From positions 57,946 to 121,945 of the forward strand of contig NZ_DASVMI010000030.1 in assembly GCF_036384435.1 (NCBI RefSeq): a stretch of DNA of 64,000 nt, given 5' to 3'. The position numbers and the translations under genes are program-made. The notes under the pieces were generated by a model. It was not told the origin of the DNA and did no database searches. It worked only from the letters and a program-made list of their open reading frames with translations. Below, piece after piece: positions 3,052 to 47,100 of the stretch; within the stretch, counting starts at the first letter, position 1; the number at the start of each line of letters is the position of its first letter. The DNA comes from Dyella sp. Lineage in GTDB: Bacteria > Pseudomonadota > Gammaproteobacteria > Xanthomonadales > Rhodanobacteraceae.

Positions 3052-3127
<76 letters not shown>

Positions 3128-3358
3128 CACAACAGTCCAAAGATGTCCGTGTTCTCTAAACCAAAAAGTGGCCAATTTGGCCAAGTTCTTGTTTATGGAA
3201 AGCATAAGTTGGCCGGCTTTGGCCGCAGTTAGGCAGGGCAGGGCCTCGTAGGCCATTTAGTCCTTTGGGGCTGCAACGACCCGATCGCGTGCCGAGACGC
3301 GCGCGACGGCGGACTGACTGAATGACTTAAGGTGACGGCAGATGGCTCATTGGCCGAC

Positions 3359-3860
3359 CTAGTCGCAAAGGAAGCGCACCCTGTCGCGGACGGTGTGCAC
3401 GGGCGCTTCGGCCTCAGCAACTATCGTTCTGATAAACGGTTTGCGAGGATATGAGCCATCCATCCTGGTGCGATCAAGCACCAACTGGTCGATCTGTGCC
3501 TGCTTCTGAGTACACCGTTGCTTCACGTCGTTTGCGCGCAGTTGGTGAAGCTGACGAACGAGGTTGTCTAAACATGCCGGCCGTGCGTGAGGGTGCATAT
3601 CAGCCTGCGTGGCCAAGGCCTCGTGTGTTGGATAAGGAGGCCCTCTTTGAAGGGCTTCTTCCAGCAACTGCCGGTATCTGCCCAGGCGCTCCTGACCGAT
3701 AGCTCGCCGTTTCTTCCTACGCCGAGCCGCTGGTGGAGGGATATCCATCAGTTCTTGAGAACCGGCGCACGTGGGATCTAGCAAGATGTCGAGAAGGGGC
3801 GACGTCCCCTAAGCAACCAACCAGCTTCGCTAGAGAAATTGCCCGCAGCCGGCAAACTGG
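3359..3860 (-). pseudogene. Probable C-terminal remnant of a TniQ/TnsD-family protein
   Basis: Minus-strand frames RAISLAKLVGCL / GTSPLLDILLDP...RYRQLLEEALQRGPPYPTHEALATQAD, with frameshift/stops and no N-terminus; resembles helical C-terminal regions of TniQ proteins. Confidence 0.35.
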
Positions 3861-3973
3861 CTGCCATCAGCATCATCGCGTTGCCTATTGTTGACGTCGA
3901 GCCTGACCAATACGGGTGACGTCGAGCAGGCAACGCTTGCGAGCAGCGGAGGGCGACCGGGCCAGAAGCGGAC

Positions 3974-4033
3974 AGTCAACACCTGAGTTAAGCCGCGCCG
4001 CGAAGCGGCGTCGGCTTGGAGGGATCGTTAGGC
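3974..4033 (-). mobile_element. Integron attC recombination site (59-base element)
   Basis: Minus strand GCCTAAC-GATCC-CTCCAAGC-CGACGCCGCTTCGCGGCGCG-GCTTAAC-TCAGGT-GTTGACT, 60 bp, starts immediately after the TAG of ORF 4034-4888; R''/L''/L'/R' architecture. Confidence 0.85.
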
Positions 4034-4888
4034 CTATCCCCGAGCGGACACAAGCACACAGTCGATATTGAAGGTGCGTTTCAACCGGTTCGCCAAAATG
4101 AAATACTGGCGCCTAGGTGATTGCCCCTCATGGAATCTTTCTGCCAGATCACCGTCTTCCTCGATTTGCTCCAGCGCGGCAATGATCTTTGTGTTGATCG
4201 CTGCCAATGATATTGGCTCTGCTGATTGCGCGCGTGTCAGCTCTTCATATACAGATTCCACGAAGCTCTTGCCGTCCTCCGCCCGCTCCGGCTCGGAATG
4301 GAAGCAAACGTGCTTTTTTAGGCTGTAGGTGTAGTGGTGACTTACCGTTGTGGGGTCAGCGACTTGTCTATGGGGAACAATGCTGATCGAGTGGTCAAAT
4401 GAAAGATAGTCTCGCCAGTAATACCAACCGGCATCCCACAATCCAGCGGCGCTAGGACCCCAGAACGGCTCCCGAAATGAGTACTTGTAACGCTCAAGGT
4501 CGGATTTCGTGTGGAAGAGCGGGGCAACATATCGCGAGTAATTTCCGTTTGAGTGCAGAGCCGCAAGCAAGTTATGCTGCTTATACCTGGCGGACTTCTT
4601 GTCTGGGTGAAGTGGAAATGCGTAACAGCCGGGAGCGTCTGCAATTCTAAGTTTTCTTCGCGCAGCTTGCAGAGGTGATTTAGAAAACGTGGGGTAAAGG
4701 TCTGCAACCTTTAACTGCAGAAATAGCGGCACAAGAGCGAGTGCTTCCAGGTCATACCCAAGCGCGTTTTCTTGCTTCCCCGCGTACGTGTGAATTTCAA
4801 AGCGCTGGCCTGCGTTATAAAAGCTCCTGCGTAAATCGAACTCGATAAGTGTCTGGTATGCAGCTTCAATGAACTCTACACTTTGCAT
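4034..4888 (-). CDS. Cassette-borne hypothetical protein, putative PD-(D/E)xK restriction-endonuclease-like nuclease
   Basis: ENALGYD...PLFLQLK motif (E..GYD..F.Q.K); AT-richer than flanks; bounded by TTAGGGC at 4899-4893 and the attC. Confidence 0.6.
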   Translation of the reverse strand: MQSVEFIEAAYQTLIEFDLRRSFYNAGQRFEIHTYAGKQENALGYDLEALALVPLFLQLKVADLYPTFSKSPLQAARRKLRIADAPGCYAFPLHPDKKSARYKQHNLLAALHSNGNYSRYVAPLFHTKSDLERYKYSFREPFWGPSAAGLWDAGWYYWRDYLSFDHSISIVPHRQVADPTTVSHHYTYSLKKHVCFHSEPERAEDGKSFVESVYEELTRAQSAEPISLAAINTKIIAALEQIEEDGDLAERFHEGQSPRRQYFILANRLKRTFNIDCVLVSARG

Positions 4889-5106
4889 GGGCGCCCTAAT
4901 TAGGCCGAACTATTGAATATACGGACACGCCTGTCCGGCTATACATCCCCGATCGCGCAATGAAACGCCTACGCAACCCATTTTGCAGGAGCTTATCCTT
5001 GCCACGTCCGGCTAACAACCTAACGCAAAGCCGGACACGTGGAACGGCGGCTTTGGGTCGTACTCGGCCCTTCGAAGCATCCTCGGTCGTGGCGTAAGCT
5101 CCGCCG

Positions 5107-5931
5107 TCAAGCAGACACATCAAAAGTAGAATTTCTGGCGTGATTGGTGCGGAATTCGACGGGGCTGAGGCCGCCAAGTGCATCATGGGGTCGTACTTCG
5201 TTGTAGTCGATCATCCACCAGTGTGCCGCCTCGCGAACATCTTCGAGGCGGGCAAAGAGGTGCTGGTCCAGGACCTCCTCGCGGAAGGTGCGATTGAAGC
5301 GTTCGATAAAGGCATTCTGGTTGGGCTTGCCGGGCTGGATGTATTGAATTGCCACGCCATTGGCTTTTGCCCACTGGGTGAACGCTTCGCCCAGGAACTC
5401 CGGCCCGTTGTCTGAACGCACCACCTGCGGCAGTCCGTGGTCGCGCTTGATCTGATCGAAAACTCGCACCAAGCGGCTCGAGGTAATCGATGTATCCACT
5501 TCAATATGCAGCGCCTCCCGGTTGAAGTCGTCGACGACGTTGAACGTCCGGAAGCGACGGCCGCAAGCTAGAGCATCACTCATGAAATCAATGGACCACA
5601 CGGTATCCGGCAGCCTCGGCACATAAAGCGCGACACGCTCGCGTTTCGGAAGGCGGCGCCTCGCTGCGCGCCGGATGTTGAGCTTCATCGCTTTGTACAC
5701 ACGGTAAATCCGTTTTGGGTTCCAATCCTTTCGCTTCTTGCGCAACTGGTCGCTGCACTTCCAGAAGCCCCGGCTTGGCCGCTCTTCCACCAGCTTTGCC
5801 AGGGCGGCGATCAACTCCGCGTCGCGCATCGTCCAGTCCAGTGGCGGCGCGTACCAGGCCGCTCGCGACAGCCCCAGATATCCGCAGGACCGGCTCAATG
5901 GGCGGTTGTGCACTTCGGTCAGGAAGCGCAC
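5107..5931 (-). CDS. IS3-family transposase OrfB (DDE integrase core)
   Basis: WSIDFMSD, VVDDFNRE, RSDNGPEF, IQPGKPNQNAFIERFNRTFREE motifs. Confidence 0.95.
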   Translation of the reverse strand: MRFLTEVHNRPLSRSCGYLGLSRAAWYAPPLDWTMRDAELIAALAKLVEERPSRGFWKCSDQLRKKRKDWNPKRIYRVYKAMKLNIRRAARRRLPKRERVALYVPRLPDTVWSIDFMSDALACGRRFRTFNVVDDFNREALHIEVDTSITSSRLVRVFDQIKRDHGLPQVVRSDNGPEFLGEAFTQWAKANGVAIQYIQPGKPNQNAFIERFNRTFREEVLDQHLFARLEDVREAAHWWMIDYNEVRPHDALGGLSPVEFRTNHARNSTFDVSA

Positions 5932-5944
5932 CGCCTCTCGCTTA

Positions 5945-5968
5945 TGGGCCGGCCCTATAGTTTTTTTG
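5945..5968 (-). promoter_or_regulatory. Programmed -1 frameshift signal (A7 run followed by GGGCCGGCCC hairpin)
   Basis: Minus strand GCAAAAAAACTATAGGGCCGGCCC at the orfA/orfB junction. Confidence 0.8.
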
Positions 5969-6221
5969 CGATCAGGTCCTTCAGTGCCGCGTTATCCAGC
6001 GCCAACTCCGCGTACATACGCTTCAGCTTGGCGTTCTCCGCCTCCAGGTCCTTCACCCGGCGCAACTCGGACGCCTCCAGGCCGCCGTACTTGCTCTTCC
6101 ACTGGTAGTACGTGGCGGCACTGATGCCAGCCTGGCGACACAGATCCTTCACCGGCACCCCGGCGTCGGCCTGCTTGAGAATCGAGACGATCTGCGTCTC
6201 GGTGAACTTCGATGTGCGCAT
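5955..6221 (-). CDS. IS3-family transposase OrfA (HTH)
   Basis: MRTSKFTETQIVSILKQADAGVPVKDLCRQAGISAATYYQWKSKYGG...RVKDLEAENAKLKRMYA. Confidence 0.95.
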   Translation of the reverse strand: MRTSKFTETQIVSILKQADAGVPVKDLCRQAGISAATYYQWKSKYGGLEASELRRVKDLEAENAKLKRMYAELALDNAALKDLIAKKL

Positions 6222-6422
6222 GGAACCTCCTGACTTGGGAACAATGCCAGAAAGTTCTAGTTATGAGATGTCTGTCCGACGGGGGAGCTTACGCTTCCAT
6301 ATCGACCGATGCATAGGAGGTGCGAGATTCCAGTTATGGAATTAGCTATATATTCCGCCACTAGATTGAACGGCCACCGCTGAACAACAGACGCTTGTGG
6401 CATGCCGCCACTGCTGCACCAG

Positions 6423-7940
6423 TTACCGAGGCCCTTGCTTGCTCATCGACTGTGTCGGCGGCATCGGTAACTGCGGCGAAGTCGCGCCAGCGGCCGGCCA
6501 ACGCAAGTTGGACGTCTCGATCGTCGATGTCTTGCACTTCGCTAGGAAGCGTGGCATGCCTGCTTCAACGAGCCGAAAAAGAACCGCGGGCGTTTTTTCA
6601 ATCGGCCACTGGATCCAACTGCGGTCTTTACCGGTATGGCGGTCCGCCGGAAAGCCAAACTGGCGCGCCTCTTCCTTCGGAAGAAATACGCCGCAAACAA
6701 CGTTTGGCCCGGCCAAGTAAAGAAGTACGCTTACGCGGCGCAAGGCCGGCTCGTCCTTGTAACGCAACGCTCTCTCGCCAAGTCCGATACGAACTTGCGG
6801 TGTCGTGGTGTCTATTGCTACACAGCGCATCCCTAGAAAATCACTGACCATGCATCCACACTGCAGCAACCAATTGAACATTGGATTGCCATACTCCGCT
6901 CTGCCTGCACTGCCAAATCGATAGCGCAATACCCGATCAAGGCTGATAACAGCTCCAACGCTCGAAGAATAGTCTTTGTTCTGTTTCTTCGACCAGCTAA
7001 TGAAGTGACTATCCAGCACAGGCTTGATTAACATAGCGAATGCCTCGCGCTCCTTACCTTTTAAGGACATACCAAACAAGCCATCGGTCGCCTCCATGAC
7101 ATCCATCACCATGCCGCCCGGATAGGTCTTATGTCCACCGGCGAGGGGGCGACGTGCGCCGTGGCAGACCGTACCGCCGCGCTTTTTATATTGAATGTCA
7201 ATATATCTATCCGATAAGTCACGACTGAGGTAGCTTTGCCAATTGTGGTAATAGTCCAGCGAGATGGAGGCTTTCCGGTGAGCCTTCGCCCCCATGCTCC
7301 GACTCAGCTGACGTTGCTCCCGATCTGCCTGTTCGAGCTTGCGTTCCGCTCTAGTAGGAACCGAACGCCACAATATGAGCTTGATGCCGCGATCAAGGAA
7401 CGTCATCCAGTTGCTGTTATCAATCGCAAATCTGTTGCTGTTCGACGTTGCGGGCTTTGGACGACCGGCACGATGGGGTTTCCAGCGAAGATATGCCTCC
7501 CTGATCATATCGTCGTCGACGGTCTCTGCACTATCCCATTGAGTCTTGAACCAATCACGTGCCTGTTCAAGGTGTGCCTGATCCTCCACCCGATAGCCCG
7601 CCTCGATCCAATGGCCAACCTCGTCGCCCTCGAAGCCAAGGCCATTGGCAGAAAAGTTAGCGGATCCGATGATGCCGTAGCTGGCTCCCAACAGCACTTT
7701 CGCATGCAGGTTGCTCAGCTGTTTGACCTCCACGTTCGTGTGCTTCATTAGCTCCCCGATGACGCTGGGGTTGGTTCCTCCGCTCAGGAGATTACAAATG
7801 ATTCGGCGCTTGCCGACGGCCGCCCCAAGAAGGACATCGTTCGCACCCTTTCCCCAAAAGGCAATGGCCATATCCACAGTCTCATCGGAGACGGCCAGGT
7901 CTTTGATGGCTTTGCTGTAGCCCTTGCCGACTAGAAACAT
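6423..7940 (-). CDS. Phospholipase D-family (single HKD) nuclease with long uncharacterised C-terminus
   Basis: AIAFWG...LHAKVLLG...IIGSANFSANGL...EAG: HxK..GSxN..E motif as in Nuc/BfiI-type nucleases. Confidence 0.8.
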   Translation of the reverse strand: MFLVGKGYSKAIKDLAVSDETVDMAIAFWGKGANDVLLGAAVGKRRIICNLLSGGTNPSVIGELMKHTNVEVKQLSNLHAKVLLGASYGIIGSANFSANGLGFEGDEVGHWIEAGYRVEDQAHLEQARDWFKTQWDSAETVDDDMIREAYLRWKPHRAGRPKPATSNSNRFAIDNSNWMTFLDRGIKLILWRSVPTRAERKLEQADREQRQLSRSMGAKAHRKASISLDYYHNWQSYLSRDLSDRYIDIQYKKRGGTVCHGARRPLAGGHKTYPGGMVMDVMEATDGLFGMSLKGKEREAFAMLIKPVLDSHFISWSKKQNKDYSSSVGAVISLDRVLRYRFGSAGRAEYGNPMFNWLLQCGCMVSDFLGMRCVAIDTTTPQVRIGLGERALRYKDEPALRRVSVLLYLAGPNVVCGVFLPKEEARQFGFPADRHTGKDRSWIQWPIEKTPAVLFRLVEAGMPRFLAKCKTSTIETSNLRWPAAGATSPQLPMPPTQSMSKQGPR

Positions 7941-7983
7941 AGTTGTTCCATTCCGATGGAGATGTTGGCATCCAGTATCGACA

Positions 7984-8805
7984 TCAAATCAGCGCTGCGT
8001 CGACAATCCGTTCATTGTCGACCAACCAGCGCTCTTGAAAGGAGCGTCGTGCCGCCCAGCCGATCTCTCTGAGGTACCAACTGTTCACCGAGCCTCCTAC
8101 CACTGCTCCGATAGCAGGAATAGCTTGAAGTGCCTTTCGCTTCGTCAGGTTAACGCCAAGCTGCTTTGCCAGTGTTTTGATGGCGATCACCCCGGCCTCC
8201 TTGCTCAACCTGTCCGAGGCGGCTTTCTCGGCAATCTTCTTCCATGTGGTCTTGGCGATGGTTACCTGGATCATGCGCAAGGCGGTCAGCGCTGCCGTTT
8301 TCTCGGCCATTTCATTGGCGCTTGAAGCGGAAAGTACGCCCAGCATGAAATCCTTGTCATCCTTCGTTTTCGCTTCGTAGCCGTAGCAGGCACCGATCTT
8401 GTGGATCGTGCGCAAAGCCAGGACCAGTACTGCGGGAATATCTGCAGCAATACCAAAAATGCCAGCCGCGCCTGTGGCGGCGCCCTCCGCACCGGCAATA
8501 CCTATGGCCCAGTTGTGGACCTCATCAGCCAACTTGTCGGACCGCGCCAGATCAAGTGACTTAAGCTCTTCGAGGCTCGACACGCCCGCGTCGCGAAGGA
8601 TGTCCCCGGTATCCGTTAGCCAGTCTGCCGCGGAAGAGGACAGCTCCAGCAACCCTTGGATGGCCGATACCGGCACGATCTTGTTGATCAGCCAGGACAC
8701 TGGCGTCAATGCGATACCCACGGCCTGCGAGACGACAGAGGGCTCTTCCGCCTTCCAGGCTGTAATAGCGCTGAGTTGCTTCGTCTCATATTCCGTAAGA
8801 TTCAT
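7984..8805 (-). CDS. EcsC family protein
   Basis: AEGAATGAAGIFGIAADIPAVLVLALRTIHKIGACYGY...KALQAIPAIGAVVGGSVN motifs. Confidence 0.85.
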   Translation of the reverse strand: MNLTEYETKQLSAITAWKAEEPSVVSQAVGIALTPVSWLINKIVPVSAIQGLLELSSSAADWLTDTGDILRDAGVSSLEELKSLDLARSDKLADEVHNWAIGIAGAEGAATGAAGIFGIAADIPAVLVLALRTIHKIGACYGYEAKTKDDKDFMLGVLSASSANEMAEKTAALTALRMIQVTIAKTTWKKIAEKAASDRLSKEAGVIAIKTLAKQLGVNLTKRKALQAIPAIGAVVGGSVNSWYLREIGWAARRSFQERWLVDNERIVDAALI

Positions 8806-8989
8806 CTGAGTTCCTTTTGCATTGGAATGCCACGCTGCCTGCCAAGAGGCACGTATATTCGGAGGGTAGGTAATGAGGACGATATCGACCGTTATTTCTA
8901 CAACTTGAATGACGAGCCCAGGGGCATTCTACAGCGGTCTGCGGAGCGATGTGATTTTCTCGAAGAAGCCAGCCCTCACAGGCGTTCCC

Positions 8990-9350
8990 TTATTCTTCCC
9001 AGCTACACTGAAGAGCGGTGAGGGCCAGATATCGCTTCTTCTTTCTATCTTATGTTGGTCCGCCAAAAGAAACCTAGTAGATAAAATATAATCCAAGGCC
9101 AACAGCGGAGATCGGCCATCCGAGTATGACGGTTTTAACCCATATATCTTCCGCCAGGAAGTAAGCCAAGGCCTTCGGCCAATAAATATCGAACTAATTC
9201 TTGGCTTTCAGGATGCCAGGAACTGCGGTTAACGGTAGTGTCGCCACCAGCGTGATGAAGCCTTTTCGCGCGTAGTCATAGTACCCATATTGGGTACTTG
9301 CATAGTCCTGCGATGCCTTGACTAGCTTCGACGTCCCCCGATTTTGAGTA
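8990..9350 (-). pseudogene. Degenerate AT-rich fragment of a probable 2-TM membrane protein gene
   Basis: One frame reads KASQDYASTQYGYYDYARKGFITLVATLPLTAVPGILKAKN*FDIYWPKALAYFLAEDIWVKTVILGWPISAVGLGLYFIY*VSFGGPT*DRKKKRYL with in-frame stops. Confidence 0.35.
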
Positions 9351-9618
9351 GCGCGATCACCTGTACTTCGGCGCGACTCTCGACGATCAGCTTGCCCATT
9401 TCGGCGGTGATGATACGTGCCAGCTCTTCCGTGCGCGCGTCGATCAGGTCGGCGAGTTTACGCAACACCACCAAGCGCGGCTGGATCGGGCCCTTGGACC
9501 ACTGCGATTTGTAGAGCTTATGCGCGGCGGCCAGCGCCTCTTCGACCTGTTGATCCGAATAGCTGGGCCAGGTTTTGACCAGTTCGCCGGTGGTGGGATT
9601 GAAGATTTGATATGCCAT
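9351..9618 (-). pseudogene. Truncated NAD-dependent succinate-semialdehyde/aldehyde dehydrogenase (first ~90 aa only)
   Basis: MAYQIFNPTTGELVKTWP...LARIITAEMGKLIVESRAEVQVIA, then unrelated sequence and a stop at 9322. Confidence 0.85.
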
Positions 9619-11934: not shown

Positions 11935-11964
11935 GTTTTGCCCCAAAACCCGAGGTTTTGCGTC

Positions 11965-12423
11965 ATGCCAACCTACGTTTGTTCGGTTCCTCCCCAGCGT
12001 TTGACGAAGGAACAAAAAACGGAAATCGCCACGGCCATCGGCCGCCGCCACAGCGACGCGACCGGCGCGCCGGCTTTTTTCGTGCAGGTGGACATCGATG
12101 AAAGCCCTACCAAGCTGCGCTTCCTGGGCGGAACGCTCAGCGACGCACACATTTGGATTCGCGGCGACATTCGCGCTGGCCGCACGGATGCGGTGCGCCA
12201 GACGTTGATGCTGAACATCATGAAAGACGTAAGCGCGATCACTGGCGTCAAGGAGCAGGATATCTGGATCTACCTTTGCAACCTCGTGCCCACCGATATG
12301 GTCGAGTTCGGCCGCGTGCTTCCTGTACCAGGCGAAGAACAGGCGTGGTTCGAAAGTCTCCCTGCCCACTTGCAGGCCTACATGCTCAGCCTGGGCACCA
12401 CCGGAAAAACATTCAAGCTTTGA
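11965..12423 (+). CDS. cis-CaaD-like tautomerase-superfamily enzyme
   Basis: After Met removal: Pro1, His28, Arg69, Arg72, Tyr102, Glu113, matching the cis-3-chloroacrylic acid dehalogenase catalytic set. Confidence 0.85.
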   Translation: MPTYVCSVPPQRLTKEQKTEIATAIGRRHSDATGAPAFFVQVDIDESPTKLRFLGGTLSDAHIWIRGDIRAGRTDAVRQTLMLNIMKDVSAITGVKEQDIWIYLCNLVPTDMVEFGRVLPVPGEEQAWFESLPAHLQAYMLSLGTTGKTFKL

Positions 12424-38105: not shown

Positions 38106-41100
38106 ATGTCGTCTCAAGACTTGCGCTCCTCGCTGCTGCAAAGCTCGGATGTTCTGCCCTTGTCCAGCCCGCAGCTGGATATTTTTCATGATCACCTCAT
38201 GAAAGGCAGTACTCCCGCCTACAATATCGGCGGCTATCTGGATTTTCACGGTTCAATGGATATTCAACGCTTCGAAAAAGCGCTGAATCTGGCCATAAGA
38301 AAACACGATTCGCTACGTATCATGCTAATGGCCGGCGACGACGACCTGCCAGGCCAGCGAATCATGGCCGATATGCCAGCCGATCTGATGTTGCTGGATT
38401 TTTCCCAGGATGCGTCGCCGGACGACTCGGCGCGCACATGGATGCGCAACAGCATGAACCAGCCGTTCGTCCTGGTGGGTGCCCCGCTTTTTCGCCATGC
38501 ACTGATCAAGCTTGCCGATGCGCACTATCAATGGTTCATCTGCGTGCATCACCTGATCGCCGATGGCTGGGCGATGGATACGTTGTTCCAGTCCTTCGCG
38601 GGCCTGTACAGCGCGCTCGAACAGGGTGAAGAGCCGCAGCTGGCCGCTCCCTCCTATGCCCGATTCGTCGAATCGGATCGCCTTTACCAGGCATCGGCCA
38701 GCTTTACCAAGGACCGCGACTACTGGCATGAAAAGTATCGGGATCTTCCCGATCCACTGCTCTTGGCACGACACGCCGTGCACGACCAGACGCCCATCAG
38801 CGGTGAACATGTCTGGCGCCTCGATGACGCATTGAACGCACGCATCGACGACCTGGCCACCACCCATCAGTCCACGCGGTTTCAGGTAGTTCTGGCGATC
38901 TTCCATGCCTTTTTCCAGCGCCTGCACCAGCGCGAGGAGCTGGTCATCGGCTTATCCGTGCTCAACCGCAAGGATGCCGACGCCCGCAGGACTGTCGGCA
39001 TGTTCACCAATGTGTCGGCCATGCGGCTGGCCTTTGACCTGCGCGGTTCGTTCGTCGATCTGCTCAAGGCCATCGCGCCTTCGCTGCGCCAGGATTATCG
39101 CCACCAGCGCTTTCCGATCGGGCAATTGAACAAGGGGCTGGGCTTGTTTGCTCGCCAGCGCGACCAACTCTACGAACTTTCCATCTCGTATGAAAACGGC
39201 GGCGTACCGCTCCGGTTCGGCGACGTCACGGCGTTTGTATTCAAGTGCACGAACGATTACGAAAGCACACCATTGCGCCTGTGCGTGCGCGATGACCTGC
39301 ATCGCCGAGAGACATCGCTGTTCTTCATCTTTGGCCACGCCTATTACAGCCAGGCCGAGATCGCCGTGCTGCAAGATCGTTTCATGCGCTTCACGCAGGC
39401 GCTTCTCGCCGATCCGCAGAGTTCGCTTGACAGCTTGCCGATCGTCACCCCGCAGGAGCGCGCCCAGTTCGACGCCTGGAATGCAACGGCTATCGACTAT
39501 CCCCAGGACGCATGCGTGCATGCATGCTTCGAGCAGCAGGCCGCACGGCGACCCGATGCCATCGCACTGGTGCACGAGGATACGAGCCTGACCTATGCCG
39601 AGGTCGATGCGCGCGCAAATCAGTTGGCACAGCACCTGATCGCGCTGGGTGTGGGCCCGGACGATCGGGTAGCGCTGTGCGCCGCGCGACAACCGGCAAC
39701 CATCGTTGCCATGCTCGCGATCCTGAAGGCCGGCGGCGCATACGTGCCGATTGACCCGTCCTATCCGGCTGAGCGCGTCGCTTATGTGCTGGGCGATGCA
39801 CAGCCACGACTGCTGTTGGCCGACCGGGCCGGTCGCCAGGCACTGGGAGCGCCGCCGGCCCAACTGCCAGTGCTCGACCTGGATGGCGCCGCCCTCGCCT
39901 GGGCGAGTTTGTCGCGCGAGCGTCCGCAGGTAGAAGGCCTGGATTCACGGCGGCTGGCCTACGTGATCTACACCTCCGGTTCTACGGGCCAGCCCAAAGG
40001 CGTGATGGTCGAGCATCGCCAGGTATGCCATCAGGTCACCGCACTGCGGCATGCCTACCAGTTCACCGCCGACGACCGCCTGTTGCAGTTCGCGTCCATT
40101 GCGTTCGACATGTCCGTGGAGGAAATCTTTCCCGCGCTGCTTACCGGCGCGACGCTGGTATTGCGCACGGATGCCTGCCTGGAATCGCCGGCCGCCTTCG
40201 CCGCGTTCTGTGCCGTCCACCAGCTCACGTACCTCAACCTGCCCAGCACGTTCTGGGCTCAACTGGCGTTGGCCCAACCGGAGCTGGAACTACCCGTCTG
40301 CCTGCGCCAGGTCAGTGCCGGCGGCGACGCCATGAGCCTGGCCGCCGCTTCGGCGTGGCTGCGTCGCCAGAGCCATCGTCCTGCCCTGTTCAATGCATAT
40401 GGCCCCACCGAAACCACGGTCAACGCCACCATGCTTGCGGTGGATCGGCCCATGGAAGTGTCATGCATCGGACGCCCGATCGCCAACACGCGGGCCTACC
40501 TGCTCGATGCATATCGTCAACCTGTGCCGGTCGGCGCCGTCGGCGAGCTTTACATCGGCGGCGCGGGTGTTGCCCGTGGTTATCTTGATCGCCCCCAGCT
40601 CACCATGGAGCGTTTTCTGAGCGATCCATTCTCGCCGGTTGCCGATGCACGTATGTATCGCACCGGCGACCTTGCTCGTTTTCTACCCGATGGCAACATC
40701 GAATTCCTCGGACGCAATGACCATCAGGTCAAGATTCGCGGCTACCGCATCGAACTGGGCGAGATCGAGACGCGATTGGCCAACCATCGGCAAGTCCACG
40801 AAGCGGTGGTGCTTGCACGCGGCGAGTCGCATGATCGTCGCCTGGTCGCTTATGTGGTGGGCGACGGGGACGCCAACGACCTGCGCGCGCATCTTGCCGT
40901 CGAATTGCCGCCCTACATGATCCCTTCGGCGTTTGTCCGCCTGGATGCCTTTCCGTTGACGCCCAACGGCAAACTCGATCGCAAGGCGTTGCCCGAGCCT
41001 GACGAGGCAGCGTTCGCGCATCGCGCCTATGAGGCACCGCGCGATGGCATCGAGGCGTCGCTGGCCCAGTTGTGGTGCCAGTTGCTGGACCTGGCACGCG

Positions 41101-44100
41101 TTGGTCGACACGATCATTTCTTCGAGCTGGGCGGACATTCGCTGATCGCGATTCGCCTGCTCGGCAAGGTCTCCCAACAGTTCGGTGTCTCGCTACCGCT
41201 GGCAAGCCTGTTCAATCATCCCACGCTGGCAGCCCTGGCCGAGGCGATCGCCTCCGATCATGACGGCGCAGGGACGGCGACGCTGCCTCCCATCGTCGCG
41301 GTGTCGCACGGCGATCACATCCCGCTTTCCTATGCACAGCAACGGCTGTGGTTCATGGCCCAGCTCGATCAAGCCAACGCCACCTATCATGTCTCCCTGG
41401 TGCTGCAGTTGGAGGGCGCGCTGGACATCCCGGCATTGCAACAAGCACTCGACCGCCTGCTCCACCGCCATGAAGCCTTGCGCACCGTTTTCCATGCGAT
41501 CGACGGCGAGCCGCGCGCGTCGCTGCTTCCAGCACATACGCCGTTTCCGCTGGTGGTGCATGACCTGCGCCAATCCCCTCATGCCGATGAGCTGCTGGCC
41601 CGATATAAGCACGACCATGCGCACGCGGCTTATGACATGGAGCATGGCCCGCTGGTGCGCGCCAACGTGATTCGCCTGGGTGACCGCCGGCATGTACTTC
41701 AGCTGGGCATGCACCATATCGTCTCCGATGGCTGGTCGATCAACCTGCTGGCACGCGAGATCAACGCGCTCTACGTCGCGTTTGCACAGGGACAGGCTGA
41801 CCCGCTGCCCGCGTTACGTGTGCAGTACCCCGACTACGCCGCTTGGCAACATACCGTGCTGTCGAGCGAACGACTGCGTGACCAGGCCGCGTATTGGAAG
41901 GACGCCTTGCATGGTGCGCCCGACCTGCTGCACCTGCCCACCGATCATCCGCGACCGTCGCGCCAGTCGTTTGCCGGTGCGATGCGCCCCATACGCTTGG
42001 ACGTTGCACTGACGCGTCGGCTGCGCCAGCTGGGCAAGCAGCATGGCATGAGCCTGTATATGCTGGTAACTGCCGCATGGGCCGCGGTGCTGGCCAGGCT
42101 GTCGGGCCAGGACGATGTCATGATCGGTACCTTGTCGGCCAATCGCGGCCAGCGCGAAATCGAGCCCTTGATCGGCTTTTTCGTCAGTACCTTGCCTTTG
42201 CGCATCGACCTGTCGGGCGAACCCGATGCCCTGACGTTGTTGTCGCGCGTGCGGCGCACGACGCTGGCGGCACAGGAAAACCAGGATCTTCCGTTCGAGC
42301 AGATCGTGGACATCGCCAAGCCCTCGCGTCGGCTGGATCATTCGCCGCTGTTCCAGGTGTTGTTTGCCTGGCAGAGCAACGACAAGACCGGCTTTGAACT
42401 GCCAGGTCTGACGATCAGCCAGTCGCCTATGTCGCTGGAGTCGATTCGCTACGATCTCGAGCTGCACCTGTACGAAACCGAAGACGCTATCGTCGGCGGC
42501 CTTGGCTATGCCACGGCGCTCTTTGACGAAACGACCATCGACCGCCATATCGGTTACCTGAGCACGACCCTGGAGGCCATGGTGGCCGATCCGGCTACGG
42601 CCTTGCGCGTGCCGTTGCCCGATAGCCACGAGCTGGCCCAGCTCGCGCGCTGGAACGATACCGCTGTCGATCCTGTCTCGGTCGATGCTATCCATCGCCT
42701 GTTCGAGCAGCACGCAGCCAGCTCGCCGCAGGCCACGGCATTGATATGCGACGACCAGGCACTCTCCTATGGCGCGTTGAACGCCAGGGCCAATCAATGG
42801 GCTCGTCACCTGCGATCGCTGGGGGTCGGCACGGGAGTGCGCAGCGACCCGCGCATCGCCCTGTGCGCGGAGCGCGGCTTCGACATGATCTGCGCACTTT
42901 TGGCCATTCTCAAGGCCGGTGCCTGCTACGTACCGCTGGACCCGTCCTATCCCAGCGAACGGCTGCGTCAGGTGCTGTCCGAGGCCGGTGCCGAGCTGGT
43001 ACTGCACGATACCGCAGGGCATGAAGCGCTCGGGGTATCCTCACTGGCCCGATATCGCTGCGTGGATATCGGCGAGCTTGCCATGCATGGCACCGACCTG
43101 GCCGAAGAGAACCTTCCATCGCCCGAGGGCACCGACGCCAGCAGCCTTGCCTATGTCATCTACACGTCCGGCTCTACCGGCACGCCCAAGGGTGTGGCGA
43201 TGCCGCACCGGCCGCTGGTCAACCTCGTGCAATGGCAGCTGGCCGAAGCCGTAAAGGCCGGTTTGCCGGCTCCGAAAACACTGCAATTTGCTGCACTTGG
43301 ATTCGACGTCGCGTTCCAGGAGATCTTTACCACCCTGTGCGCGGGTGCATCCCTGGTACTGGTCGATACACGCACGCGCATGCAGTTCGGCAAGCTGATC
43401 GCGCTGCTGCGCCACCAACGCGTGCAACGGGTATTCCTGCCCTATATCGCGCTACAGGCCCTGGCCGAGGCGGCCGAAGATATCCGCGATGACGGCACGG
43501 CGCTGCTGCCCGAGTTGCGCGCGATCATCGTAGCAGGGGAGCAACTGCGCCTCACGCCGCAGATCCAGCGCCTGTTCACCCGTCTGCCGGCCTGCGACCT
43601 GCACAACCACTATGGCCCGACCGAGACCCACGTGGTCACCGCACAGGTCCTGCCGGCCGGCAGCATCGCCACATCACTGCCCCATGTGCCGATTGGTCGT
43701 CCCATCGCCAATGCACGCACCTATGTGCTCGATGGGCATGGACAGCCCGTGCCGGTGGGAGTCGCCGGCGAACTGTACATCGGCGGCTTGAGCATCGCGC
43801 GCGGCTATCTGGGGCGCGATGACCTGACTGCCGCACGCTTTCTTGCCGATCCGTTCGATACGCGTACCGGAGCGCGCATGTATCGCACCGGCGACCTGGC
43901 GCGGCACCTGCCAGATGGCCGCCTGATATTTCTTGGTCGCAACGATCACCAGGTCAAGCTGCGCGGGTTCCGTATCGAGCTGGGTGAAATCGAGGCACGC
44001 CTGGCCGAACATGCCAGCGTGCGCGAGTGCGCGGTGATCGCACGCAACGACGCGCAAGGCGAGATTCAACTGGTGGCCTACGTCGTCGCGGGCTCGCATG

Positions 44101-47100
44101 CCGATGACAATCCTGCGACATGGCACGCCTACCTGGCCGCCACGCTGCCGGCATACATGGTGCCTGCCGCATTCGTCACGCTGGAGGCTATTCCTTTGAC
44201 GGCCCATGGCAAGCTCGATCGTCAGGCACTGCCCGCACCCGACGAACAGGCCCTGGTCCGCGCCCATTACGAAGCACCGCGTGGCGATGTGGAAACCAGG
44301 CTTGCCGCACTCTGGCAGGATCTCCTGGGCGTCGCCCAAGTCGGTCGCCGCGATCAGTTCTTCGAACTCGGCGGCCACTCTCTGATCGCGGTACGCCTGC
44401 TCAGCCGCATCGCCCAGGCATTCGGTGCCAGCCTGCCACTGGCCGACCTGTTTGCGTGGCCGGTATTGCATGATCTGGCCGCACGCATTGCCCAACAGCA
44501 GCGCTCGACTCCCCACCAGCAGACCGGCATCCCACGCGCCACGCGCGGGGAGATGCTACCCCTGTCGCATGCACAGCAACGCCTGTGGTTTCTCGCCCAG
44601 CTCGATGGCGACAGCGCGACTTACCACATCCCGATTGCCGTGCAACTGGACGGCCCGCTGGATGTGCCCGCGCTGCGCGAAGCGTTGCAACAAGTGTTCG
44701 CACGCCATGAAAGTCTGCGCACGGTATTCGTCGCGCGACACGGCCAGCCGCATGCCCGGCTGTTGGACAGCAATGCCGAGGTTGCACTTCACCAGCATGA
44801 TCTTCGTCACTACGGTGCAAGCGAACGTGTAGACGCAGCCACCATACTGCTCGCCCGAGAGCGCAACCGGCCCTTCGATCTGGCGGCAGGGCCGCTGCTT
44901 CGCGCCAGTCTGCTGCGCACCGAAGAACAACAGCATGTATTGCAACTGACCTTGCACCACATCGTGGCCGACGGCTGGTCGCTGGGCATTCTCTCCCGAG
45001 AGCTCGGCGCCTGCTATGCCCAGGCACAGGGTTCGCGTTCCGACATGCTGGCCCCACTGCCGATCCAGTACGCCGACTATGCGGCATGGGAGCATGGCTG
45101 GCTGGTCAGCGAACGCATGCTTGAACAGGTCACTTTCTGGCAAGACCAACTCGCCGGATCGCCATCCTTGCTTGAGCTTCCCACGGATCGACCACGCCCG
45201 GCACGGCAGTCGTTCGAGGGTGCCTTTGTTCCGATCGAGCTGGATGCCAACTTGACGCAGGATCTCAAGCGGCTCGCGCAGCACCACGGCGCGACGCTTT
45301 TCATGATCGTGCTGGCCGCGTGGGCGCTGGTGCTTTCGCGACTATCCGGGCAGCGCGACATCGTGATCGGCACGCCGACGGCCGGTCGGGGACGACCGGA
45401 ACTTGAATCGCTGATCGGCTTTTTCGTCAACACGCTGCCGCTGCGCATCGACCTGCATGAGGCCACCGATGTCGCATCACTGCTACGCCACGTTCGCACG
45501 ATCGCACTGGATGCCCAGGCACATCAGGAGCTTCCCTTCGAGCGCATCGTGGAGCTGGCCAAGGTGCCTCGTCGCATCGACCACACACCGCTGGTCCAGG
45601 TGCTGCTGGCGTGGCAGAGCCATGACGAAGGTTCCTGGAACCTGCCGGGAATGACCGCCACACCGGCGCATGGCGACTTTGACTGGGTGAAGTTCGACCA
45701 GGAGTTGATTCTGAGCGACGCCGACGGCCACATCCGGGGCGGCATCAACTATGCCACGGCGCTGTTCGATCGATCGACCATCGAACGCCACGCCGGCTAT
45801 CTGCGCAACGTGCTCAAAGCCATGGCTGCTGGCGATACGCGCCCGCTGCATCGCATCCCGATGCTCGCCGACGACGAACGCGAGCAGTTGATAGAAATGT
45901 GGAACCGCACCGATATGGCGGTCGAATCGTTGTGCCTGCATCAACAGGTGGAGCGTCACGCCCACGAATCGCCGCATTCGCTGGCGCTGGTCAGCCAACA
46001 GGAACAGGTGACCTATGCCGACCTGAACGCACGGGCCAACCACCTCGCGCATCACCTGGCACGCATGGCTGTGCGACCGGGCGATCGCGTAGCATTGTGT
46101 GTGGAGAAGGGGGTCTCCATGTTCGTCGGCCTGCTGGCGATCATGAAAGCCGGTGGCGTGTACGTGCCGCTGGATCCGGCGTACGCCTCTGCACGCCTGG
46201 ACCATATCCTCCTCGATGCAACACCGCGTCTGCTGCTTTGCGACGAGATCGGTCGCGAGGCCCTGGGAGCCGGTGCGAGAGGCCGGTTGCCGGCGCTCGA
46301 TATGGATCAGGCATCGGCATGGGAGCATGAGCCAGGCGACAATCCGGCCGTGCCAGGCCTCGATGCCCGGGCCTTGGCGTATGTGATCTACACGTCCGGC
46401 TCCACCGGCGCGCCCAAGGGTGTGATGGTCGAGCACCATGGCATCATCAATCTGGGCCACTCGCTTGGTGAGCGCCTGGGTATCGACGCAGATAGCCGCA
46501 TCAGCCAGTTTGCCTCCGCCGGCTTCGACGCCAGCATCTTCGAGTGCTCGATGGCGTTCACCGCGGGTGCGGCGCTGTACCTGCCGTCGGTCGCCGAACG
46601 GCAGAGCCCATCCGCGTTCATGGCCTTCATCGGACGCCAGCGCATCACCCATGCCACGCTGCCACCGGCGTTCCTGCAGGGCCATGCCGAAGCCCCGTGC
46701 TGGGCGCACCGCCCAATGTTGATCTTTGCGGGCGATGCATCCAGCCCTGGCCTGTTTCGTCACTGGAGCCGCTACGCAAGACTTGCCAATGCCTATGGCC
46801 CCACCGAGATCACCGTCTGTGCCAGCACCTGGGTCTGCCCCGATGAGCCAGGCGAACTGTCCGTGGTGCCGGTAGGGCGTCCCATCGGGAATACTCGCCT
46901 GTACTTGCTCGACGAACACGGCCTGCCCGTGCCTCGCGGCAGCATCGGCGAGCTGTATATCGGGGGTGCGAACGTCGCGCGCGGCTACCTGGACCGCCCT
47001 GCGCTGAATGCGGAGCGCTTCGTCTCCGACCCATTCGATGATAAGCCACAGGCACGCATGTATCGTAGCGGCGACCTGATGCGCTACCTTCCCGATGGCA

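Follow-up and report, generated by a model that had tools for sequence, protein, structure and literature searches.

We analyzed a 64,000-nucleotide stretch of Dyella sp. DNA (contig NZ_DASVMI010000030.1, positions 57,946 to 121,945; the whole stretch is called the window here), in which a solitary integron gene cassette carries a single open reading frame (ORF) of an uncharacterized protein family. The ORF lies on the reverse strand at 4034-4888 (855 bp from ATG to TAG) and encodes 284 amino acids. Its stop codon (4036-4034) is directly followed by a 60-nt attC site at 3974-4033 on the same strand, which resembles the site behind the resistance gene aadB (ant(2'')-Ia) and has the sequence GCCTAACGATCCCTCCAAGCCGACGCCGCTTCGCGGCGCGGCTTAACTCAGGTGTTGACT (4033-3974, GCCTAAC...GTTGACT). 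The site starts with the R'' box GCCTAAC (4033-4027), continues through the L box and a variable stem with one extrahelical base (4017-3990) and ends in the R' box GTTGACT (3980-3974), where the crossover falls between 3980 and 3979. On the other side of the ORF, a 21-nt leader and a core site occupy 4889-4910 (reverse strand). The whole cassette runs from the crossover in G(4910)|TT to the G(3980) of the R' core, which gives 930 bp at 3980-4909 on the reverse strand. The GC content of the ORF is 51% compared with 60.8% for the window.

The attC site was located with a covariance model (CM) trained on ten attC sites from the cassette arrays of three loci (L005, L014 and L006) that were reached via homologs of the ORF; the copy in the window was excluded from training. 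The R''/R' and L''/L' pairings of the model were set by hand, with 69% of the cells paired versus 27-44% for slid partners. The model matched exactly 3974-4033 on the reverse strand (41.2 bits, E = 1.3e-7 for the 64-kb window), and this is the only match in the window, as no second attC was found there up to E = 10. With the filters off, the first 14.9 kb of the window and the 2.8 kb before its start contained no other credible attC. The attC sites of aadB and catB3 from a class 1 integron (intI1-aadB-catB3-qacEdelta1-sul1) served as positive controls and scored 64 and 63 bits with the same model. The first-pass annotation of this DNA had placed a 60-bp attC immediately after the TAG and compared it with the 59-base element of aadB. 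Both statements stand, and the site is recognized by a model built without it. In 2,513 plasmid records, the attC following aadB is 93-95% identical to the window site over 56-59 nt, and 41 consecutive bases are the same. As single-stranded DNA, the central stem has a folding energy of about -16 kcal/mol (z -2.7 to -3.0), and one base of the bottom strand, a T, bulges out.

The likeness to the aadB site extends to its length of 60 nt, to the R'' box GCCTAAC directly after the stop codon and to identical L boxes, stem, loop and bulge. The two sites differ past the crossover, where the R' box of the window reads TTGACT and not TTAGAC or TTAGGC, and the R box consequently pairs poorly, at only 3-4 positions in the integrated state. 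The cassettes differ as well: the cargo in the window is not a resistance gene, and there is neither an integron platform nor a neighboring cassette. The host order fits the "Xanthomonadales-like" clade of attC sites (Ghaly et al. 2021, PMC8352920). Depth over the attC core in the source metagenomes is 30-45 times that of its flanks; in the two runs X1 and X2, the word depth of 3978-4033 is 400-670 compared with about 15 for the flanks. At least six other contigs of the source metagenomes have 3978-4033 in common and diverge at both of its ends. The depth of the core and the diverging contigs therefore indicate that many other cassettes of the community use the same recombination site, which amounts to a large soil and root pool with aadB-type attC sites. 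All the above make us highly confident that the element is a genuine integron-type cassette with an attC of the Xanthomonadales/aadB type.

The 5' boundary was set by comparison with homologous cassettes and with two other organisms, X5 and X6 (contigs of other public runs), which carry the same cassette together with its flanks. The pre-ATG sequence of X6 is TATTCAACAGTTAGGCCTATCAGGGCGGGT-ATG, and its counterpart in the window is TATTCAATAGTTCGGCCTAATTAGGGCGCCC. At the place of window positions 4889-4910, leader and core read GTTAGGCCTATCAGGGCGGGT-ATG in X6 and GTTCGGCCTATTAGGGCAGGCTC-ATG in X5. The core of X6 is a perfect GTTAGGC, and that of the window is G|TTCGGC (GTTCGGC at 4910-4904), which matches GTTAGGC at six of seven positions. 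The homologous cassettes at L006, L019, L001 and L014 start with GTTAGGC or GTTCGGC as well, followed by a leader of 19-22 nt. The alignment of X6 and these cassettes thus puts the 5' core at 4910-4904 and the cassette at 3980-4909. A TTAGGGC-GCCC sequence before the ATG, which had been noted earlier as the core, is present at 4899-4889 and lies inside the leader; TTAGGGC (4899-4893) was rejected in favor of GTTCGGC. The earlier estimate of about 920 bp for the cassette is accordingly replaced by 930 bp, with the 5' end some 10 nt further upstream. L019, the most similar cassette from another place, is homologous at the nucleotide level (84%) over 4889-3983 only; the similarity stops at the cassette ends, as expected of a mobile module. 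The unit of ORF and attC recurs as a module in other contexts (L014, L005, L006 and L019).

No integron platform accompanies the cassette. There is no intI among the larger ORFs of the window, and the genes called within 6.8 kb on one side and 10 kb on the other include no tyrosine recombinase. A tblastn search with IntI1 gave no match in the window or in any locus, a soft negative as the query sequence was approximate. The 6.8 kb on one side and the 59 kb on the other yielded neither attC nor intI. The upstream flank (4911-5091, reverse strand), which is common to X5 up to the edge of an insertion sequence (IS), holds neither an attC nor an identifiable attI and gave no CM match with the filters off; the 116 nt that precede the core site are unstructured (z -0.2). 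Neither flank showed homology to another locus. A CALIN, a cluster of attC sites without an integrase, needs at least two attC sites, and one attC without an integrase is a SALIN in the terms of IntegronFinder 2 (bioRxiv 10.1101/2024.07.02.601686; bioRxiv 10.1101/2025.06.18.660453). With one attC and no integrase, the element is therefore a SALIN and neither a CALIN nor a complete integron. The first-pass annotation was right that the cassette is solitary and without intI in the window, and its term "CALIN-like" has to be given up. The element shares with CALINs the presence of an attC-bearing cassette in the chromosome with no intI nearby, and elements of this sort are frequent in Xanthomonas genomes at places other than the ilvD integron (bioRxiv 10.1101/2025.06.18.660453). 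It differs from them in having one attC only and in being kept with its flanks in three organisms. Because the R box pairs at so few positions and no partner site lies upstream, the cassette is probably immobile. No excised form was seen in the contigs, which drop rare variants.

The runs that hold this region are soil and root metagenomes. X5 shares 3806-3858 and 3930-5093 with the window at about 95% identity, with two substitutions in the attC; over 4901-5093 its contig shows 10 substitutions and 13 gap letters before it diverges. In X6 the cassette and its flanks are about 91% identical to the window. The downstream flank (3806-3979, reverse strand), which has a terminator-like hairpin at 3857-3841, is conserved together with the cassette in both. 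As cassette and flanks are kept in X5 and X6, the insertion appears to be old, to predate the split of these three organisms and to have been inherited with its flanks; it is probably fixed. The junctions read ...AATAG|TTCGGCC... and ...CAGGTG|TTGACTG.... By one route, IntI would have inserted a circular cassette at a secondary GTT site with the reconstructed target ...TATTCAAYAG|TTGACTG..., for which the empty site would be ...TATTCAAYAGTTGACTGTCC.... By another, the cassette would be the last survivor of a decayed array, which would leave the same junctions. The two modes fit equally well. The empty site was not found among GTDB genomes, which were searched with a protein pattern and with the 30-mer of the X5 junction. 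After the insertion, the cassette would have been passed on vertically in at least three related organisms as a fixed, non-working SALIN.

Close homologs of the 284-aa protein are few. There are 17 in 5.8 billion proteins, with 47-86% identity, and all are full-length except one truncated copy of 188 aa from Xanthomonas cucurbitae (L005). The array around that copy shows signs of decay, namely an attC at 8819-8878 with the R' box ATTAGGC in place of GTTAGGC and a degenerate attC at 11958-12018. No relatives were found in GTDB representative genomes, plasmids or phages, and JGI metagenomes added two more on short loci without attC. A profile search of 1.84 billion representatives delineated a wider superfamily of 194 clusters (50% identity) of proteins of about 300 aa. 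The ratio of non-synonymous to synonymous substitution rates (dN/dS) is 0.09-0.12 in comparison with the homologs at L019, L014 and L004. As the homologs keep the full length and this ratio is low, the gene is real and under purifying selection.

Conservation was read from an alignment of 80 superfamily members. E8, E40, G44, D46, Q58, K60, R77, Q104-H105-N106, Y120, P123 and F125 are invariant or nearly so, as are P172-H173, H184, Y186 and F196-H197-S198 in the second half; the C-terminal part (209-273) is variable and helical. An AlphaFold2 (AF2) model from 17 sequences was unusable, with a predicted local distance difference test score (pLDDT) of 47, and 80 sequences raised it to 81 with a predicted template modeling score of 0.76. 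The model predicts a helix at 8-25, strands at 31-34, 47-50 and 56-59, a helix at 72-79, a strand at 87-92, a helix at 103-113 and a strand at 118-123. This predicted order is the alpha-beta-beta-beta-alpha-beta of PD-(D/E)xK nucleases, with D46 just before the strand 47-50 and Q58-x-K60 on the strand 56-59. PD-QxK is a recognized variant of this motif and occurs in the Mrr-type catalytic domain of type IV restriction enzymes (PMC11037411, PMC6765204). Taking the invariant D...QxK motif together with the helix-strand order of the model, we consider the odds about even that the protein is a nuclease of the PD-QxK type. Eight of the weak matches of the model in BFVD (E 1-3) are VRR-NUC, Holliday-junction-resolvase (Hjc) or PD(D/E)XK proteins, which is suggestive only.

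The protein resembles the Mrr-like domain (PF04471) in its D...Q-x-K, in the glutamate upstream in the first helix and in the absence of a methylase. It differs from Mrr_cat by an additional conserved His-rich region and by the variable helical C-terminus, and neither the protein nor any of the 80 relatives matches Pfam Mrr_cat at E ≤ 10. The motif E..GYD...FLQLK had been taken earlier as a sign of a PD-(D/E)xK nuclease; the D...QxK within it is indeed invariant or nearly so and, in the AF2 model, placed as in these enzymes, and a match of the fold or of a profile was not found. The earlier remark that there is no methyltransferase partner is confirmed. D46, ahead of the second strand, and Q58-x-K60, on the third, would form an Mrr-like PD-QxK nuclease site, and the protein would act as a stand-alone anti-phage effector that has no cognate methyltransferase and cuts invading DNA, which may be modified. 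Any specificity of the type IV kind is speculative.

The gene neighborhoods of the relatives bear on the function. L014 is an array of five attC sites with Mrr_cat and AbiC cassettes. The X. cucurbitae array L005 lies beside a Laminin_G gene and includes Mrr_cat and SymE; the lamG side is a reported site of Xanthomonas CALINs (bioRxiv 10.1101/2025.06.18.660453), in agreement with L005. L006 is a CALIN of three attC sites at 7400-9470 of that locus, between an isocitrate dehydrogenase gene (icd) and a methyltransferase gene; the homolog there has a 93-nt attC of a different type with the TAG-GCCTAAC junction kept. Other relatives are found with a type II restriction-modification (RM) system and GajB- and OLD-like genes (L001), with a PDC-M01/PtuA-like pair and an AbiC-like gene (L004), with MzaB-E of the Mza system and Dcm/Vsr (L009-11), and with a helicase/methylase pair with type III RM-like domains (L012; Pfam ResIII and N6_N4_Mtase, the helicase without a PADLOC match). 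P0168, a relative of 339 aa and 29% identity with the motif kept, is encoded at 8001-9020 of L024/L025 within a type 1 BREX operon whose gene order is brxA-brxB-brxC-pglX-P0168-pglZ-brxL, at 4 and 22 nt from its neighbors. The gene of another, P0072, overlaps its neighbors (3599-5843 of L027) and is translationally coupled within an operon that also encodes a 916-aa DUF499 protein and a 329-aa protein without annotation and has one more gene downstream; this operon may be an undescribed multi-gene system.

No neighboring gene is conserved across the loci except an AbiC-like gene in two of them, and thus the gene stands alone. Recognized or candidate defense genes (PADLOC or Pfam) occur within 10 kb in most independent contexts of a small sample, and the surroundings of the relatives in this sample are those of defense islands, with the BREX-embedded relative and Mza, PDC-M01/PtuA-like, type II RM, GajB-like, Mrr_cat and AbiC neighbors. 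The window has a defense-type neighbor of its own, an EcsC-family protein that matches PDC-S29. Integron cassettes are rich in defense genes, as the first-pass annotation had stated, with Mrr_cat fusions among them, and 18% of the tested V. cholerae cassettes without assigned function protect against phage (bioRxiv 10.1101/2024.07.02.601686). Judged from gene neighborhood alone, a role in anti-phage defense is plausible and somewhat favored.

We therefore read the locus as a stranded 930-bp cassette with an intact gene for a stand-alone anti-phage PD-QxK nuclease, and we give this whole explanation a probability of about 0.5. Several observations weigh against it. As to expression, a search of 3100-5400 for sigma-70-like promoters (a weak test) gave none, which agrees with the earlier description of the ORF as promoter-less; none of the RNA runs holds the gene, and its Shine-Dalgarno sequence is weaker than those of the homologs. 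The differences listed between the window and X5 are about 23 non-synonymous and 17 synonymous, which from these partial data suggests relaxed constraint between the two. The equal fit of secondary-site insertion and array remnant leaves the stranding itself with two possible histories. As to the protein, the ORF and its 80 relatives have no family match in Pfam, NCBIfam or PHROGs, and none to a known defense system in PADLOC (PADLOC-DB v2.0.0, 2023). Sequence profiles of the PDB gave nothing for the full length or the N-terminal domain. Foldseek returned nothing at E ≤ 1e-3 against PDB and BFVD (best E 0.17-0.9), and so the proposal of a nuclease-like structure found no significant counterpart in these structural and profile comparisons. 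Alignment with two Mrr_cat cassette proteins by hhalign gave a probability below 1%. Residues 31-60, where the motif lies, are the less confident part of the N-terminal domain (pLDDT 68-76). The second invariant block (H105, H173, H184 and H197-S198) is unexplained by a simple PD-(D/E)xK site, and in the relative P0080, which has no obvious defense neighbors, D46 and Q58 are missing.

Two alternatives concern the element. An ordinary chromosomal gene followed by a chance palindrome or a plain terminator would also show a GC-rich hairpin directly after its stop codon. This reading is refuted by the CM score obtained without the window copy, by the 41 consecutive bases shared with the aadB attC and by the many unrelated contigs that have the site in common and diverge at its ends; the hairpin is also not followed by a T-run, and we regard the chance of such a coincidence as negligible. 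It is improbable that the cassette is not orphaned and forms part of a functional integron or an extended array, with intI or further attC sites beyond view or too far diverged. The CM was trained on Xanthomonadales-type sites, so other types may escape it, GTTAG-like boxes (GCGTTAGGTTGTTAGCC) and a repeated TAGCCGGAC in the upstream flank are possible attI remnants, and X5 has another attC of the same type elsewhere. However, no attC or intI was found over the 6.8 kb and 59 kb on the two sides, the 116 nt upstream lack structure, and the flanks consist of an IS3-family element and ordinary chromosomal genes.

The other two alternatives concern the cargo and deserve more weight. The cassette may be as described and its protein not a PD-(D/E)xK nuclease, instead having a new fold or being another enzyme, perhaps still in defense; an example would be a metal-dependent hydrolase using H105, H173, H184 and H197. 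The lack of a structural or profile match to any nuclease and the strongly conserved His-rich second half (PH, HxYxY, FHSEP), which lies outside the putative nuclease core, speak for this possibility. We consider it the lesser one but a serious one, as D46, Q58 and K60 equal the histidines in conservation and stand at the expected PD-QxK place in the predicted order, and several weak BFVD matches are VRR-NUC, Hjc or PD(D/E)XK proteins. It is rather unlikely that the function is other than phage defense, such as a toxin or addiction role, DNA repair or a niche function, with the islands being hot spots shared by mobile DNA. No experiment or homology links the protein to a defense system, most integron cassettes are without known function (bioRxiv 10.1101/2024.07.02.601686), and some contexts are not related to defense (L006 between icd and housekeeping genes, and L026). 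Yet the embedding of P0168 in a BREX operon, the overlapping genes of P0072 in the DUF499 operon and the defense genes near most independent relatives argue for the anti-phage role.

Among known systems, the cassette is close to the single-gene ones for defense that are found in sedentary chromosomal integrons (Darracq et al., bioRxiv 10.1101/2024.07.02.601686). It is small and promoterless and has a single ORF for a putative nuclease with no methyltransferase; several of those cassettes have Mrr_cat or nuclease domains, and the relatives of the window gene share arrays with Mrr_cat and AbiC cassettes. It differs in that its gene matches no named system in PADLOC, that its host belongs to the Xanthomonadales and not to Vibrio, and that it is known from sequence alone. 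BREX loci embed type IV enzymes such as the GmrSD-family BrxU (PMC8565348), and P0168 occupies its BREX operon in a like manner; as the families are different, the analogy is positional only. The stranded integron cassette and the candidate single-gene defense nuclease are of known kinds, and the cargo family is wholly unannotated. We raise tentatively, as a doubtful proposal, that the protein is the first examined member of an unrecognized single-gene anti-phage family (about 194 clusters) that combines a nuclease core, diverged beyond the reach of present profile and fold searches, with a conserved His-rich module and moves between cassettes, defense islands and the interiors of BREX loci, possibly serving as a type IV-like second line against phages able to evade methylation-based systems.

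The cassette pool of soil and plant Xanthomonadales is thought to be the source of the resistance cassettes of class 1 integrons (PMC8352920). As its attC is nearly identical to the clinical aadB attC, the locus is another direct sample of this pool. It also shows a cassette that has gone from its integron and would now be part of the chromosome, fixed and passed on in related organisms. The cargo is a small (855 bp) and easily cloned candidate from a superfamily without any annotation, and the link of this superfamily to BREX, Mza, Septu-like and RM loci makes a defense role directly testable. If true, it would add one more family to the defense catalog and to integron-borne defense, which is useful and, given the many such reports, not surprising.

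On the downstream side, the cassette is faced by the 3' end of a tRNA-Met (CAT) gene at 3052-3127 (forward strand), 852 nt from the attC. The 708 nt between this gene and the conserved cassette block (3128-3835) contain an ORF of 141 aa without a family match (3359-3784, reverse strand). In X6 they are replaced by 119 nt from the tRNA to position 3836, and in X5 by other sequence, which marks a variable spot directly after the tRNA. The GC content is 52-60% between 3 and 10 kb and 60-65% elsewhere in the window. The window was searched for a direct repeat of the tRNA end that would mark the borders of an island, and none was found. Of the term "tRNA island" used in the first-pass annotation, the adjacent tRNA and the stretch of lower GC stand, and a tRNA-end repeat or an island integrase was not found; the label is thus only loosely supported.

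Upstream of the cassette, at a distance of 182 nt, an IS3-family IS occupies 5092-6294 (reverse strand), with imperfect inverted repeats of 43 nt and ORFs for HTH_Tnp_1 (5955-6221) and rve (5107-5931). Its transposase shares 90% identity or more with proteins of Luteibacter yeojuensis and Dyella. Together with the soil and root origin of the runs, this points to a probable host among the Rhodanobacteraceae (Xanthomonadales), in keeping with the type of the attC (PMC8352920). X5, which is without the IS, diverges exactly at 5093 and continues differently from window position 6295. Because of this difference and the absence of a target-site duplication, a simple insertion of the IS at 5092 was rejected, and an IS-associated rearrangement or deletion is likely. 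The 34 nt at 5060-5093 recur in another contig of X2, followed there by CGCGGGCGCAA; in X5 they are followed by CGCAGGCGCAA. They look like a short repeated element that received the IS.

Beyond the IS, a PLD-like protein of 505 aa (6423-7940, reverse strand) has a weak PLD/HKD nuclease motif and DpdK/DrmC-like matches (E 1.6e-5 and 5.5e-4). It is followed by the EcsC-family protein mentioned above (7984-8805, reverse strand), whose match to the PADLOC candidate defense family PDC-S29 has an E of 3.9e-18. The pair (6423-8805) may be a two-gene defense module in the same stretch of lower GC. At the far edge of this region lies a 98-aa aldehyde-dehydrogenase fragment (9322-9618, reverse strand), probably from a truncated gene. 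Further along, at 38106-48854 on the forward strand, the window encodes a non-ribosomal peptide synthetase of 3,582 aa with three condensation/adenylation/carrier modules and a terminal reductase domain.

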